This document shows positions 706 to 54,094 of a DNA stretch of 64,000 nucleotides, one piece after another (the first letter of the stretch is position 1; each line of letters begins with the position of its first letter). Location: IMG/VR virus record IMGVR_UViG_3300031949_000010; one strand, given 5' to 3'. The translations under genes were made by a program, and so were the position numbers. The DNA comes from a virus. The notes beneath the pieces were generated by a model. It did no database searches. It was given only the letters and a program-made list of their open reading frames with translations, and was not told the origin of the DNA.

Positions 706-1545
706 ATGGTGCCTCTGAGGAAGAACCAGATGGGCTGAGGGGGAGGATCCCCCCCGCCGCCCCTTCCGCCGTCGGCGGACGAGGGCGACGGAAACGGCGC
801 TGTGGCGCTGCCATCCTCTCCGGCAGCCGCTCGTCCCGGCGCGTCCCTCCGGGGAGGCCAGGGAGGCGAGGCCATTCCGGCCTGGAATGCCCAGGGGCTG
901 GCGCCGACCGAGGAATCGAGGCTCGAGGCGGCAGGGCTAACGCCCTACCGAGGCCCGGTTCATCCGGGGGCGTCCAAGCCGTCCATCGGGGGCGCGTCGA
1001 TCCCCTGGCTTCTCGTGCGCGGCCTAGGCCAGACGCCAACCCTGCCGCCGGCACCCGTCTCGGACGAGCCGCCCCAGCCGGGGCCGGTGCCGCCGGCCAC
1101 GCCCCAGGCGCCGAGGGGGGGCGTCCGCATGGGGCCCCCTCCCGCCCCCCGGCCCGCCCAGGCGCGGGCCAAGGTGGCCAAGGCACAGGCGGCGAAGTTC
1201 CTGCACCTCGCGGACGAGTCCCTGGTCGAGATCCGGGGCACGCTCGTCAAGGCGGCGTCGCCGGCGCCGAGAGACCGGGACCGCATGGCGGCGCGCGCGA
1301 TCGGCCAGTGCATGAGGGCCCTCGCGAGGGCGGTCGATCCTCTGGGACGGGCGATGAAGGAGCTCCGAGCAGCCAGGGACGAGGGCCGGGACGCCTCGCT
1401 CTCGGATGATGAGCTCGGGGCCCTCGAGGCCTTCTCGACGTGCGCGGAGCGCGCGGCAGAGGAGCGCCGCAGTCACCGGAAGGCGGAGGCGGCCGTGGGC
1501 GGAGGCGTGCCCGCAGTCCTCACGCTCGCGCTGCTCGTGCTTTAG
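706..1545 (+). CDS. Pro-rich, tail-anchored putative virion membrane protein, paralog family A; in-frame TGA at 736-738
   Basis: ATG 706 with SD aagga is in frame with the tracked ORF 802..1545; C-terminal helical domain plus TM (VGGGVPAVLTLALLVL) aligns with ORFs 50844, 52509 and 53315. Confidence 0.75.
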
Positions 1546-1581
1546 GCTCTTGGAGACGCCCGCTCGGCGGGTGGGACGACC

Positions 1582-2547
1582 ATGGCGATCAGGGCCGGCC
1601 TCGGCTGACCCGACGACCAGTTTGAGGAAGGGTCCGGCCCGGAGGGCGTGGACCTGGCCGGGGGCGCGGTCTGGATCGGCGTCTCCGTGACGCCTGCAGA
1701 CCGGGCGGGAAACGTGCGGACGGCCCGGGGCTCCGCGATCGGCGCGGCGCTTTGCGGCCCCGACGGGGGGCCCCCGGCGGGTGAATGGGCCATCGAGCTC
1801 CACACCGACCGCGCGCTTCCCCCTCGGTCTCAGGGCGCGGCGAAGCCGGCCGGACCGGCCGTAGGGCCGATGCTGGAGAGGATGGTAGACCCCGAGGGCC
1901 CGTGCGCCCTCACGCACGCGCGCCTCGTCTGCCATGAAGGACGCGGGGAGTCCAGCCGGGCCGTGCGGTTCGAGCCGCCGGTTCTCTTCGGAGCAGATGA
2001 GCTCGCCCTGGTCAGGGTCGAGGTCCGAAGGGCCCCGGAGGTGCGGGTTCCCGCTCCCCGGATCGTGATCCGGAAGGAGCCCGAGCCGGAAGGGCATCAG
2101 CCCAGGCTCTCATGCGCCCCCCAGGAGGGGCTGAAGGGAGGATCCATGGCACGCCGCGCATTGGGAGCGATCGAGGACCAGATCAAGCAGGCCCGGGAGT
2201 TGATGGACCGCTTCGTCACCCTCAACCCCTCGAGGGACGACAAGAACGAGGTGGACCTGAAGCTCTCGAAGTGTGAGGGGCTCTACGAGGCGGAGAACAT
2301 CGTCAATCTGCCGCTCATCACGCACATCGCGAGCTCGGTCTGCTTCGACGAGTTGATCGACAAACTCCAGAGCATGGTCGCGAGGTACACAAGGACCCCG
2401 GTGCCTACTCCCGGCGCCAAGCCGGCTGAAGGCATGCCCTGGTATGCCTGGGCGGGGATCGGACTGGGGGCGCTGGCTGGGCTCGGATTTTTGGCTTGGG
2501 CGGTGGCGCCAAAGCCGGCGGCCGCACCCGGGAGGAGAGCGGCATGA
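1582..2547 (+). CDS. Hypothetical protein (beta-rich N half) in frame with a downstream membrane protein; in-frame TGA at 1606-1608
   Basis: ATG 1582 MAIRAGLG*PDDQFEEG is in frame with the tracked ORF 1648..2547. Confidence 0.55.
2146..2547 (+). CDS. Helical membrane protein with near-C-terminal TM (133 aa), probably with its own start
   Basis: Strong SD gaagggagg before ATG; MARRALGAIEDQ...PWYAWAGIGLGALAGLGFLAWAV. Confidence 0.7.
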   Translation: MARRALGAIEDQIKQARELMDRFVTLNPSRDDKNEVDLKLSKCEGLYEAENIVNLPLITHIASSVCFDELIDKLQSMVARYTRTPVPTPGAKPAEGMPWYAWAGIGLGALAGLGFLAWAVAPKPAAAPGRRAA

Positions 2548-2952: not shown

Positions 2953-3428
2953 TCCCGAGACTCCCGTTCCCGCCCAGGACGATCCCCCTCGCGGACGAGC
3001 TCCTATGGGGGAATTCGGCACGCGACCTCGCCTGGGCGGAAGCGAACCTGGACCGCCTCCGGCAGGCGGCTACCGACGCGTTCAATCGGGTCATCCGAGC
3101 CACCGGGACGCGGCAGCAGGCCGTGGCCCTCTGGAGCAAGGCCGAGCACAGGGAGGCCCGGATGAGGACTCCGGAATCTGGGCGCAACGTCATGGAGGCC
3201 GAGTCCCTCTACAGGGCTGCGGTGGCCCATGCGGACGCCGCGAGGGCGGAGTTTGATCGGCTGAACGCCCATGTCCGGACCTCCGAAGCGTCCGTCATGA
3301 GGATGCGCCAGGCCCTCCCGGCGCGGCTTCGCGGCGGAATAGGCAAAATGTTGCCCGTGCAGGCTCCGATGGCGACGCGGGCCCGGTTCTCGCCCTGGAT
3401 CATCCCCGGGAACTCTTGGGGGACATGA
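2949..3428 (+). CDS. Coiled-coil protein with Pro/aromatic C-tail (family B)
   Basis: Long Ala/Arg helix, then ...FSPWIIPGNSWGT. Confidence 0.65.
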   Translation: MIPRLPFPPRTIPLADELLWGNSARDLAWAEANLDRLRQAATDAFNRVIRATGTRQQAVALWSKAEHREARMRTPESGRNVMEAESLYRAAVAHADAARAEFDRLNAHVRTSEASVMRMRQALPARLRGGIGKMLPVQAPMATRARFSPWIIPGNSWGT

Positions 3429-49909: not shown

Positions 49910-50844
49910 CGAGGGCCCCCGGAAGAGTAATAGTAGGGCATTTGGGGCTTCGCCGAGGCGGTGGGGGAGGTCGCTGTCGGCACCGCAACTATGACCTGAG
50001 GGATGATGGCCGTTTCAGGCGACCACCATTTTCTAATGTCGATCCTCAACCCCCGCATCCGGACGCACCAGACGAACCAGGCGTGCATGTCCGCGCTGGA
50101 TGCAAACTTCCCCTGCATGGTCTCCTTCAGTTCTCGCGCCGCGTCCTTCATCTCATTCTCGGCGCTCTTGACAGCCCCAGCCGGGGCCCTGCGAGCGGTC
50201 TGCGCGTTGTACTCGGAGACGGCCGTTTCAAGGTTCTTCGCCAGGATACAGAGTTCATCCCAGATGACGGGCACTTTCGCAGGCACGGCGGGCGCGCGGG
50301 GAACTCCGGCCGACGGGGCGGGGGTGGGCGTGGGAGCCGGCGCGGATACTGGCTGCTGCGGCTGAAGGGCGCGGAGAATCGCCTCCTTCTCCCAGAGGAG
50401 GGCCTGCATCTTCGCGCGTAGGGCCAGGTCAGTCTCGATCCTTGCCGCCCAGAGTTTGGCCTGATTTTCTGGGAAGTCGCGCTCGAGTTGCTTTATTCTC
50501 CACTCCTCGTAGCCCAGCCAGCCGCTGGCGCGAGCCGCCCGGAGCCGTTCTGCGTCGCGTTCGTAATCTTCCGCATTCCGGCGGATCGCCTCGTAGAGGT
50601 TGGTCATCTCCAAGTCGATCTGGTCGACGGTTTTCGTTGGCACGGCGGGCCGCGCGCTCGGGGTGGAGGACGTCACCGCTGCCGGAGGGAGTTGGGCGAA
50701 CCCGGGGCGGAGCCGATCCCACAGGCGGTTCAGGTCCTTGGAATAGTCCCGGTACTGGTCGCGCCAGTAGTCGATCATCGGCTGGGTCGCCGAGGGCGGT
50801 TGCCCGAGCGCCCTTCTCCGCGCATGAAAGGCCATCGGAAGCAT
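49906..50844 (-). CDS. Coiled-coil/Pro-rich protein (312 aa) with ALGQ leader and PYYY tail
   Basis: TGATG coupling; MLPMAFHARRRALGQPP... Confidence 0.7.
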   Translation of the reverse strand: MLPMAFHARRRALGQPPSATQPMIDYWRDQYRDYSKDLNRLWDRLRPGFAQLPPAAVTSSTPSARPAVPTKTVDQIDLEMTNLYEAIRRNAEDYERDAERLRAARASGWLGYEEWRIKQLERDFPENQAKLWAARIETDLALRAKMQALLWEKEAILRALQPQQPVSAPAPTPTPAPSAGVPRAPAVPAKVPVIWDELCILAKNLETAVSEYNAQTARRAPAGAVKSAENEMKDAARELKETMQGKFASSADMHAWFVWCVRMRGLRIDIRKWWSPETAIIPQVIVAVPTATSPTASAKPQMPYYYSSGGPR

Positions 50845-52508: not shown

Positions 52509-53318
52509 TCAGGCGGCAACCAGGACGGACCCCACGATGGGTAGCCCGGTTCCGATTAGTGCTTCGAGCCAGGGCGTACCTGCAGGCTCGGCTCCGGCCG
52601 TTCCGAGCGCCTCCTCTACGCAGCGGGCGAAGGCCTCGAGCGCCTCCGCCTGAGCAGGCGACACGCGTGCGGGACGCCCTTCTATCTTCGCGGCGCAGAG
52701 TTCGTCGACCAGCCGACGGAGCTCCCCAACTTGCGTTCGGAGTTCGATCAGGCATCTCTCTCCGGCAGCCGCCGCGCCCTTCTCGGCCGCCGTCGCGCTG
52801 CACCTCCGAGCGCGGATCCGGGCACGCTCTATCTGGATCCAAGCGGTTTCCGAGAGCTCGAGGATGCGGGTCACGATGCCGATCTCGATCATTCCCACTC
52901 CCGGGATCGGGGGCACCTTGGCGGGCGGCGGCGGACGGATGAAAGGTGGAAGAATGGCGGTGGGCGGGATCACGGGCCGCGGCCGAGGTGGAATGGGCGG
53001 TCCGATGATCGGAGGAGACGTGGGCGGCGGCGGCATGATTTCAACCGTTGGCGGAGGCGCGAGCGACGGTGCCGGCGGGACGACGGGCGATGGGGGAGCT
53101 CCGCCCGGGACGCAAATGGGGCACGGAGGCTCATTCTGGGGCTTCGCCGTGCTGACCCAGGTGAGGATGCACTTCCCGGTGCCAGTGTCATAGCACTTGA
53201 CGAGACCGCCTTCCTGGCAGCACTGGATCTGCCCCAGGCCCGCCTGGCCCATCAGCCAGTGCATCGTCTTGTGGCTCAGGCTGACGTATTCCTTTCCCAT
53301 GCTCGCCATCTTCGTCAC
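52509..53318 (-). CDS. Family A: Cys-rich head, Pro stalk, helical domain, TM anchor
   Basis: GLGQIQCC...; GAAAAGERC...ALEAFARC...IGTGLPIVGSVLVAA. Confidence 0.8.
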   Translation of the reverse strand: MTKMASMGKEYVSLSHKTMHWLMGQAGLGQIQCCQEGGLVKCYDTGTGKCILTWVSTAKPQNEPPCPICVPGGAPPSPVVPPAPSLAPPPTVEIMPPPPTSPPIIGPPIPPRPRPVIPPTAILPPFIRPPPPAKVPPIPGVGMIEIGIVTRILELSETAWIQIERARIRARRCSATAAEKGAAAAGERCLIELRTQVGELRRLVDELCAAKIEGRPARVSPAQAEALEAFARCVEEALGTAGAEPAGTPWLEALIGTGLPIVGSVLVAA

Positions 53319-54094
53319 GCCGCAATCAGGATGGAGGCGGCCGCCGGCAACGCGACGCCCGCAACGGCCTTGAGCCAGTTGGGCGAGGAGTCGGGCGCGA
53401 TCGCCGCAATCTCGCCCAGACAGGCAACCAGAGTCTCGAGGGCCCCGACCTGCCGCGCGTTCAAGCGCGCCGCCCTACCCGCCCTCTTGGCGGCACAGAG
53501 CTCGCCGACTGCCGCTGAAAGCGTGCCGGCGGCGACCGTGAAGCCGGCTAGGCACTGCTTCGCCTGCGTTGCGGCCATCTTGTCGGATTCACTCGCCCCG
53601 CAGCGCTGCCCGCGCAGAATGGCCGCCTCGGCGCTCTCCCATGCCGCCTCTGCCTTGGAAAGGATGCCTTCGACTGCTGCCGTGTCGACTGGTCCCGTTG
53701 GCCCGGTCGGAGGAGGCGGCCGCGATGGCGTGAAGGGAAATTGCCCGCCTGGAAAGCCCTGCCCAGGCGGTGGTGCCCATGGGAAAACGCCCGGAAAGAA
53801 CGTGGGCGGCGGGACCGGGGGACCCAGGGGTGCCCCTCCTCCCCAACCAGGGTCAGGGCGGGGATCTCCGGCCCCCGGGGGGGCGGGAATGCCTCCGCCG
53901 CCGGTCGTCAGGTCGATGGTGCCCGTTCCGCCCCCTCCCGCGCCCCCGCCGGCGTCAGCGCCTCCGGGAGCAGGCGCGCCTCCCGGGACGCACGTGAAGC
54001 TCTCGGTGAGGTTGTCAGGGCTTATCGTGACCTGAGGAACCATACCCGGAGGGCACTGCTGGCCGAGGGCCATCGAAAGACGGACAGGCATCAT
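53315..54094 (-). CDS. Family A: two-Cys head, Gly/Pro stalk, helical domain, TM anchor
   Basis: MALGQQCPPG...; KMAATQAKQC...ALETLVAC...VAGVALPAAASILIAA. Confidence 0.8.
   Translation of the reverse strand: MMPVRLSMALGQQCPPGMVPQVTISPDNLTESFTCVPGGAPAPGGADAGGGAGGGGTGTIDLTTGGGGIPAPPGAGDPRPDPGWGGGAPLGPPVPPPTFFPGVFPWAPPPGQGFPGGQFPFTPSRPPPPTGPTGPVDTAAVEGILSKAEAAWESAEAAILRGQRCGASESDKMAATQAKQCLAGFTVAAGTLSAAVGELCAAKRAGRAARLNARQVGALETLVACLGEIAAIAPDSSPNWLKAVAGVALPAAASILIAA

Follow-up and report, generated by a model that had tools for sequence, protein, structure and literature searches.

Does a stop codon placed a few codons behind the start of a gene end translation, or is it read? The question is raised by gene 2 (1582..2547) of a 64,000-nucleotide stretch of viral DNA (IMG/VR record IMGVR_UViG_3300031949_000010; the whole stretch is called the window below), where a TGA at 1606-1608 lies behind a short leader. 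A preliminary description of the window had pointed to this GGC-TGA in frame with the open reading frame (ORF) 1648..2547, and to a similar one at 736 in the adjacent gene 1; both layouts were confirmed. Comparison with related loci suggests that the UGA of gene 2 is very probably recoded in frame in one way or another. For the way in which this happens, we favour near-cognate readthrough acting as a translational gate, to which we assign a probability of about 0.5. Features lie on the plus strand unless stated otherwise.

The in-frame UGA of gene 2 and its conservation

Gene 2 starts with ATG (1582-1584), which is followed by GCG ATC AGG GCC GGC CTC, by GGC (1603-1605) and by TGA (1606-1608). 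Behind this TGA, 13 sense codons lead to the GTG at 1648-1650 that ORF finders using table 11 take as the start, and the frame then remains open to the TGA at 2545-2547. The translation from 1582 reads MAIRAGLG*PDDQFEEGSGPEGVDL..., where the leader (1582..1605) consists of ATG plus seven codons and ends in Leu-Gly, the in-frame UGA is followed by C, and the full recoded gene, as delimited by alignments and an AlphaFold model, has 321 codons. The third position is G or C in 19 of the 22 codons of 1582-1647, as in the surrounding coding frame, and the G+C content by codon position supports the plus frame from about 1561 on, including the interval 1561-1740. An antisense ORF (1024-2097, minus strand) was set aside, as codon-position G+C at 1561-1740 favours the plus frame. 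The remaining two plus-strand frames close a few codons from the site, so that frameshifting would yield no product.

A protein search returned two relatives of gene 2 at 67-72% identity and one at 95%, and distant relatives were recovered with a profile search of 1.8 billion representatives. The DNA compared (L001, L002, L003, L005/L006, L007, L008, L009 and L011) stems from independent metagenome assemblies and makes up, together with the window, the nine lineages considered here. Scans of viral contigs with the protein and with a profile of its C-domain returned no relatives, nor did a first scan of metagenome contigs; a second one, with a profile of the distant N-domain, returned L009 and L010. 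No provirus was found in a scan of genome contigs, which hence gave no clue to the host.

Every lineage has a short basic leader of 8-19 codons that ends in L-G (L-C in L008), then TGA, and then P-D-D-E-(L/F)-E-E-G. The TGA and the codon behind it (CCC or CCG) are invariant in 9/9 lineages, although protein identity to the window is as low as 25-43% in the distant set. Among the relatives recovered, none has a sense codon at the position of the TGA. Leaderless homologues had been named in the preliminary description as the observation that would speak against recoding; every homologue recovered has both the leader and the TGA.

The nucleotide changes on the two sides of the UGA are informative about what is conserved. 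Between the window and L001, the seven codons of the leader differ by six synonymous and no non-synonymous changes. Across the nine lineages, Arg(-5) is encoded by CGG, AGG, AGA or CGA, Leu(-2) by CTC, CTG or CTT, and Gly(-1) by GGC or GGT, with TGC in L008. Since the amino acids are kept through differing codons, the leader is, judging from the aligned sequences, translated and selected as a peptide. Behind the UGA, the motif P-D-D-E-(L/F)-E-E-G is retained at about 30% identity, its Leu/Phe being spelt TTT, TTC, CTT, CTC or TTG, and the codons of this octapeptide vary at 8/8 third positions, 4/8 first positions and 4/8 second positions. In codons 23-54, the ratio of non-synonymous to synonymous divergence (pN/pS) is 0.37-0.58 at a pS of about 0.52, similar to the remainder of the gene. 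The 13 codons past the UGA have a synonymous divergence of about 0.22, versus about 0.52 elsewhere in the gene, and third-position invariance past the UGA is only modestly raised (11/19 versus 45/140, and 7/19 versus 35/138).

The first canonical start codon past the TGA lies 13 codons downstream in the window, 5 in L001 and 44 in L002. The GTG at 1648 is not retained as a start, since L002 has GTC in its place. Over the 44 codons that follow the TGA in L002, neither ATG nor GTG nor TTG occurs, though those codons are under purifying selection. Selection on the leader and on the downstream codons and the lack of a conserved start between them, taken together, indicate that the leader, the UGA and the following codons evidently form one continuous conserved reading frame.

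The sister site in gene 1 has the same layout. ATG 706 is followed by nine more codons, and GGC-TGA at 733-738 is in frame with 802-1545; this leader with its stop (MVPLRKNQMG, then UGA 736-738; 706..738) is kept in L001, L002, L003 and L007, and folding places a hairpin with the loop GUC (771-773) behind it at 759..786. In L007, the sister site consists of a strong GGAGG, an ATG, six codons (leader MARMRMG) and TGA 1806, and the 365-codon ORF after this TGA is 37% identical to gene 1 (E 5e-25). Gene 1 of L003, the 95% relative, has no canonical start for 92 codons past the TGA, and the indels in the sister gene are whole codons.

We searched the window in all six reading frames for a start codon that is followed by 4-25 codons, a stop codon and an ORF with coding-like composition and a length of 70 codons or more. 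This returned the leader-(L/M)G-TGA pattern at 736 and 1606 only. The arrangement exceeds chance by far, and the earlier view that the paired stops are not random errors held up, the same arrangement being present in all independent assemblies compared. The genome-wide enrichment of the pattern that had been expected was absent, with just two sites in 64 kb; recoding is not contradicted by this, because two lone sites point to recoding that is site-specific.

Elsewhere, TGA is an ordinary terminator. Called genes in the related loci (n = 53, L001-L008) end with TGA in 26 cases, TAG in 22 and TAA in 5, where TAG is unusually common for such G+C-rich DNA. The terminator of gene 2 itself is TGA in the window, L001, L002 and L003, TAA in L005, and TAG in L007 and L008. 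No tRNA genes were detected with ARAGORN in the 64-kb window or in any of 11 loci. An alternative code would be recognized by many in-frame stops and by a codon unused as terminator, and here there are two sites in 64 kb and a TGA that is used. Since TGA is a real stop elsewhere, the sites are only two and no tRNA was found, recoding would be confined to these sites and would need local signals, in line with the preliminary description, which had argued for context-specific recoding and against a change of code.

Readthrough as a proposed translational gate

UGA is the leakiest stop codon, and UGA-C is its weakest context. The UGA of gene 2 is followed by C in 9/9 lineages, and this combination is known to terminate translation inefficiently in bacteria (PMC5289835). 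In the reading we favour, ribosomes would start at ATG 1582, and passage through the UGA at 1606-1608 would give a single membrane protein of 321 residues. Most ribosomes would terminate at the weak UGA-C, and a set fraction would insert a near-cognate residue, likeliest Trp by means of tRNA-Trp. Release factor 2 (RF2) would be hampered by the short basic nascent leader, which would lie wholly inside the exit tunnel because it is just 7-19 residues long, and/or by a factor-bound downstream hairpin. The UGA would then serve as a gate or attenuator that determines how much, or when, two adjacent virion membrane proteins with strong ribosome-binding sites are made.

A hairpin is indeed present behind the UGA in both clades, and within 16-37 nt one follows every recoded UGA compared (12/12) but few of the true TGA stops in these loci (5/24). 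In the window, a 21-nt spacer (1609..1629), which encodes the conserved peptide PDDQFEE and has a purine-rich, Shine-Dalgarno-like 3' end, separates the UGA from a hairpin at 1630..1655, for which the RNAalifold consensus has 7 bp, a bulged G1648, 4 bp and the loop GGA (1641-1643). The GTG at 1648-1650 lies within its 3' arm, and the pair C1635-G1650 is changed to G-C in L002, which is compensatory. The hairpin of the distant clade (L005, L007, L008, L009 and L011) has a different sequence and also starts 21 nt past the UGA; it consists of two 4-bp helices, separated by a bulged A in the 3' arm, and a 7-nt loop. An A-U pair of this hairpin has become C-G in L007, and a C-G pair has become U-G in L009 and L011. 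The z-scores for folding of single sequences are just -0.85 and -0.72, so that in this G+C-rich DNA the stability of the hairpin alone is not evidence. In L007, the hairpins behind both UGAs (1823-1844 and 2992-3015) share the lower stem GGCC/GGCC and a 3'-side bulged A. This shared stem may be a binding site for a common factor.

Other proteins of the window have a similar leader and lack the stop. The paralogue at 53315-54094 (minus strand) has a leader ending in ALG, then Q; ORF 169 has LGLG-D, the ORF at 50844 (minus strand) DLG-P, and the internal start of gene 2 at 2146 ALG-A. The statement that other proteins have Q or D behind (L/M)G is thus correct for the first two and does not extend to the last two, where P and A are found. 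As the stop is replaced by Q, P or A in the paralogues, the comparison suggests that the stop itself, rather than a special residue, may be the selected feature.

Several points weigh against the gate. In bacteria, spontaneous readthrough of UGA seldom exceeds a few per cent. Termination would yield just an 8-residue peptide, the synthesis of which looks wasteful and whose fate is not explained by a gate. At a distance of 21 nt, the hairpin is beyond the reach of a ribosome that decodes the UGA, which leaves its role in simple readthrough unexplained. Nor can the leader serve solely to hamper release, because the stop-less paralogues share its motif. The context at the sister site is UGA-G, not UGA-C. 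Covariation in the hairpin is weak, with one compensatory pair per clade, and for the distant clade a shuffle control was not significant, 118 of 500 shuffles doing as well. Finally, a GUG is conserved 10 codons past the UGA in the distant clade, and this GUG in the hairpin loop may be a second, internal start there.

A more elaborate version of the gate is possible, and we propose it only tentatively: leader peptide, UGA and bulged hairpin might together constitute a dedicated gate that is switched by a trans-acting factor. Such a factor might be SelB or else a hairpin-binding protein of viral or host origin. If this is true, the virus would time or dose two virion membrane proteins via one stop codon at the junction of leader and mature protein.

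Alternative explanations of the UGA

The strongest alternative, which we consider rather unlikely, is that the UGA encodes selenocysteine and that the downstream hairpin is a bacterial selenocysteine insertion sequence (bSECIS) bound by host SelB. An invariant in-frame UGA with a conserved downstream hairpin is the classic bacterial signature, and a Cys immediately precedes the UGA in L008. A bSECIS is expected to have a loop of 3-9 nt with an early G and then G or U, an upper stem of at least 4 bp, a distance of 16-37 nt from the UGA and a minimum free energy of at most -7.5 kcal/mol (PMC13188914). All four hairpin classes (loops GGA, CGUGCCU, GUC/GGC and GUU) satisfy these rules, and a hairpin that fits them at 16-37 nt is present at 12/12 recoded UGAs compared with just 5/24 true TGA stops of the same loci (probability of about 0.006, with the four hairpin classes taken as independent). 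Of random window positions, 24-30% pass; this is far from 12/12, but it also shows that the rules are loose. In the window, both apical loops (at 1641 in gene 2, and in the sister gene) begin exactly 32 nt past their respective UGA. The distance from UGA to loop nevertheless varies from one gene to the other in the same genome, with 29 and 23 nt in L007 and with 32 and 35 nt in both L001 and L002, and the apical loops of the two genes are dissimilar.

Bacterial selenoprotein genes (PMC13188914, PMC7026636) thus share with our sites the invariant UGA and, 23-35 nt past it, a loop with G-G or G-U as its first letters. A Cys homologue exists for almost every selenoprotein (PMC13188914), whereas the nine plus five lineages examined here contained none, and Q, P or A stands in the paralogues. 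The site has no redox motif or context and lies, according to the model, within the disordered N-terminal tail of virion membrane proteins. Searches of Rfam gave no match at the gathering threshold in the window, and no match, to a SECIS family or any other, at E values up to 10 in 680-1760. Furthermore, the selenocysteine machinery would be required in every host of a divergent clade, and the conservation of the upstream leader at the peptide level would be left unexplained. If the residue were selenocysteine, this would extend selenoproteins to prokaryotic viruses, as the first such case.

It is improbable that the two UGAs are a minimal lock on late genes that is opened by a general late suppressor, that is, a viral UGA-reading tRNA or the inactivation of RF2. 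Stops placed early in the ORFs of two adjacent virion-module genes would block their premature expression, TAG is unusually frequent (22/53 true stops), and about 32 kb of the 96-kb contig lies outside the 64-kb window in which tRNAs were sought. Phages with a reassigned stop codon, as reportedly described by Borges et al. in 2022 for crAss-like and Lak phages, are said to have many in-frame stops and to encode suppressor tRNAs. The similarity is that in-frame stops in late or structural genes could silence them until the right moment. Recoded phages scatter in-frame stops through their late genes, whereas only two in-frame TGAs are present in 64 kb here, each with its own local signals. ARAGORN gave no tRNA in the window and the 11 loci, and half of the genes, gene 2 included, still have TGA as their terminator, so that their products would be lengthened. 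Nor would a conserved local context and a hairpin be required.

We regard as quite improbable an explanation without any recoding, in which the leader is a separate regulatory upstream ORF (uORF) and the protein starts downstream at GUG or CUG with a Shine-Dalgarno-like sequence in the hairpin. The GUG of the distant clade, 10 codons past the UGA and in the hairpin loop, is preceded by AAGGA-like purines 6-7 nt upstream and was picked as the start by gene callers, and the window clade has a conserved CUG with GGAGGG 8 nt ahead of it. However, the GUG of the window clade has a spacing of 2 nt and is lost in L002, and the GUGs of the two clades are at non-homologous codons. The peptide encoded between UGA and GUG is kept while its codons change synonymously or between Leu and Phe, and the sister gene in L003 lacks a canonical start for 92 codons. 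Moreover, the uORF ends 21 nt before the hairpin, so that a terminating ribosome could not open it.

Bypassing of the type known from T4 gene 60 is highly improbable. In this scheme, peptidyl-tRNA-Gly would leave GGC and land on the GGC at 1645-1647 behind GAG, thereby skipping 39 nt. A Gly codon next to a stop, a nascent peptide and a matched landing codon are elements of gene 60 (PMC7026636). Gene 2 has a Gly codon before the stop, a basic nascent leader and a GGC preceded by GAG 39 nt downstream, gene 1 has a matching GGC 48 nt downstream, and stem-loops are nearby, as in gene 60 (PMC7026636). In contrast to gene 60, both presumed gaps are in frame, which bypassing does not need, the gap is conserved at the codon level, and the indels of the sister gene are whole codons. 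The take-off codon in L008 is TGC, with no in-frame TGC as landing site. Because the sequence past the stop is conserved by codon and in frame, it appears to be translated and not skipped.

Nothing beyond the presence of the stop speaks for an error of sequencing or assembly or for a decaying pseudogene, and both are in effect refuted by the comparative data, as the same stop occurs in nine independent assemblies from differing samples and sources (JGI, Logan) and both sides of it are under purifying selection.

Known readthrough systems, the encoded protein and its surroundings

Programmed readthrough of stop codons is well known in RNA viruses of eukaryotes; to our knowledge, it is very rare in bacteria and their DNA viruses. 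The present site would be a deeply conserved case with an unusual layout, in which the stop lies 7-19 codons past the start in two neighbouring genes and is accompanied by a nascent leader and a hairpin at a fixed distance. Like our virus, Q-beta is a virus of prokaryotes with a leaky UGA in a structural gene, where a near-cognate tRNA gives rise to a low-copy virion protein. The Q-beta coat protein is complete and functional when it ends at the stop, and readthrough extends its C terminus, whereas here the stop comes after just 7-19 codons, the terminated product is tiny, two adjacent genes are concerned and a conserved hairpin follows 21 nt downstream.

For the proposed role of the leader, the closest parallel is PepNL of E. 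coli, a 14-residue leader that blocks RF2 at its own UGA, which is then read through by Trp-tRNA (PMC11890864). Both are short leader ORFs (14 codons, and 8-19 here) that end with UGA and whose peptide sequence is under selection. PepNL, however, is a uORF of its own with a regulatory effect on pepN, and no function is known for the product of its readthrough (PMC11890864), while the leader studied here is continuous in frame with the main protein. The two sequences are unrelated, and arrest of RF2 at our site is proposed by analogy only. With about 75 nt, the site is a compact cassette for recoding research that is directly testable.

The site also affects annotation. Gene callers truncate or miss the recoded genes owing to the UGA (L007 1785-2906; L003 3260-4678; L002 1211-2651), and pipelines reported, for example, proteins of 225, 276 and 236 residues instead of about 320 or 263. 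In L007, the homologue of gene 1 (365 codons, third-position G+C of 0.93) was not called at all; an antisense gene of 130 residues and a fragment of 76 residues were called instead.

The AlphaFold model of the gene 2 product has a mean predicted local distance difference test score (pLDDT) of 66, with residues 1-23 below 50. It contains strands between residues 31 and 165, which form a beta-rich N-domain (about 30-165), a three-helix C-domain (190-270) and a C-terminal membrane helix (287-308). The product is therefore predicted by the model to be a tail-anchored membrane protein of 321 residues with a disordered N-terminal tail. A Foldseek search of the model against the PDB gave no structural match. 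Gene 2 resembles a fusion, as distant relatives (P0009, P0011, P0013, P0014, P0015 and P0016) encode the N-domain of about 180 residues and the anchored C-domain of 130-140 residues separately. At the beginning of the C-domain, gene 2 has a strong internal GGGAGGA and ATG 2146 (2136..2148), from which MARRALG... is read, a leader-like sequence without a stop; this internal start may still be in use. Relatives that consist of the N-domain only (P0011, P0013, P0014 and P0016; L008 and L011) end in a conserved P-T-R-P-(L/I)-G-L. This tail repeats the terminal L-G motif of the N-terminal leaders, and such motifs are compatible with a processing or ligation signal common to virion proteins.

Genes 1 and 2 (ATG 706 and ATG 1582) are in the same reading frame, with nothing but TAG 1543-1545 and 12 sense codons between them. 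Between this TAG and the ribosome-binding region of the gene 2 leader, a small hairpin can be read from the sequence at 1558..1572 (5 bp plus a G-U pair, loop UCG); its position is kept in L001 and L003, and L002 has a different stem sequence at the same place.

The window has a G+C content of 58-74% and encodes a HerA/FtsK-type ATPase, many proteins without a family and a block for sugar biosynthesis, a gene content compatible with an uncultured virus-like element. The sequencing runs that contain its sequence are soil and sediment metagenomes, and no RNA data set is among those listed. Contigs from two sediment runs have about 94% identity over 600-2600; they are L003-like and uninformative on 1606-1608. 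In L005/L006, a gene for a 519-residue RRXRR/HNH endonuclease (L005 4324-5883) lies three genes downstream of the recoded gene.

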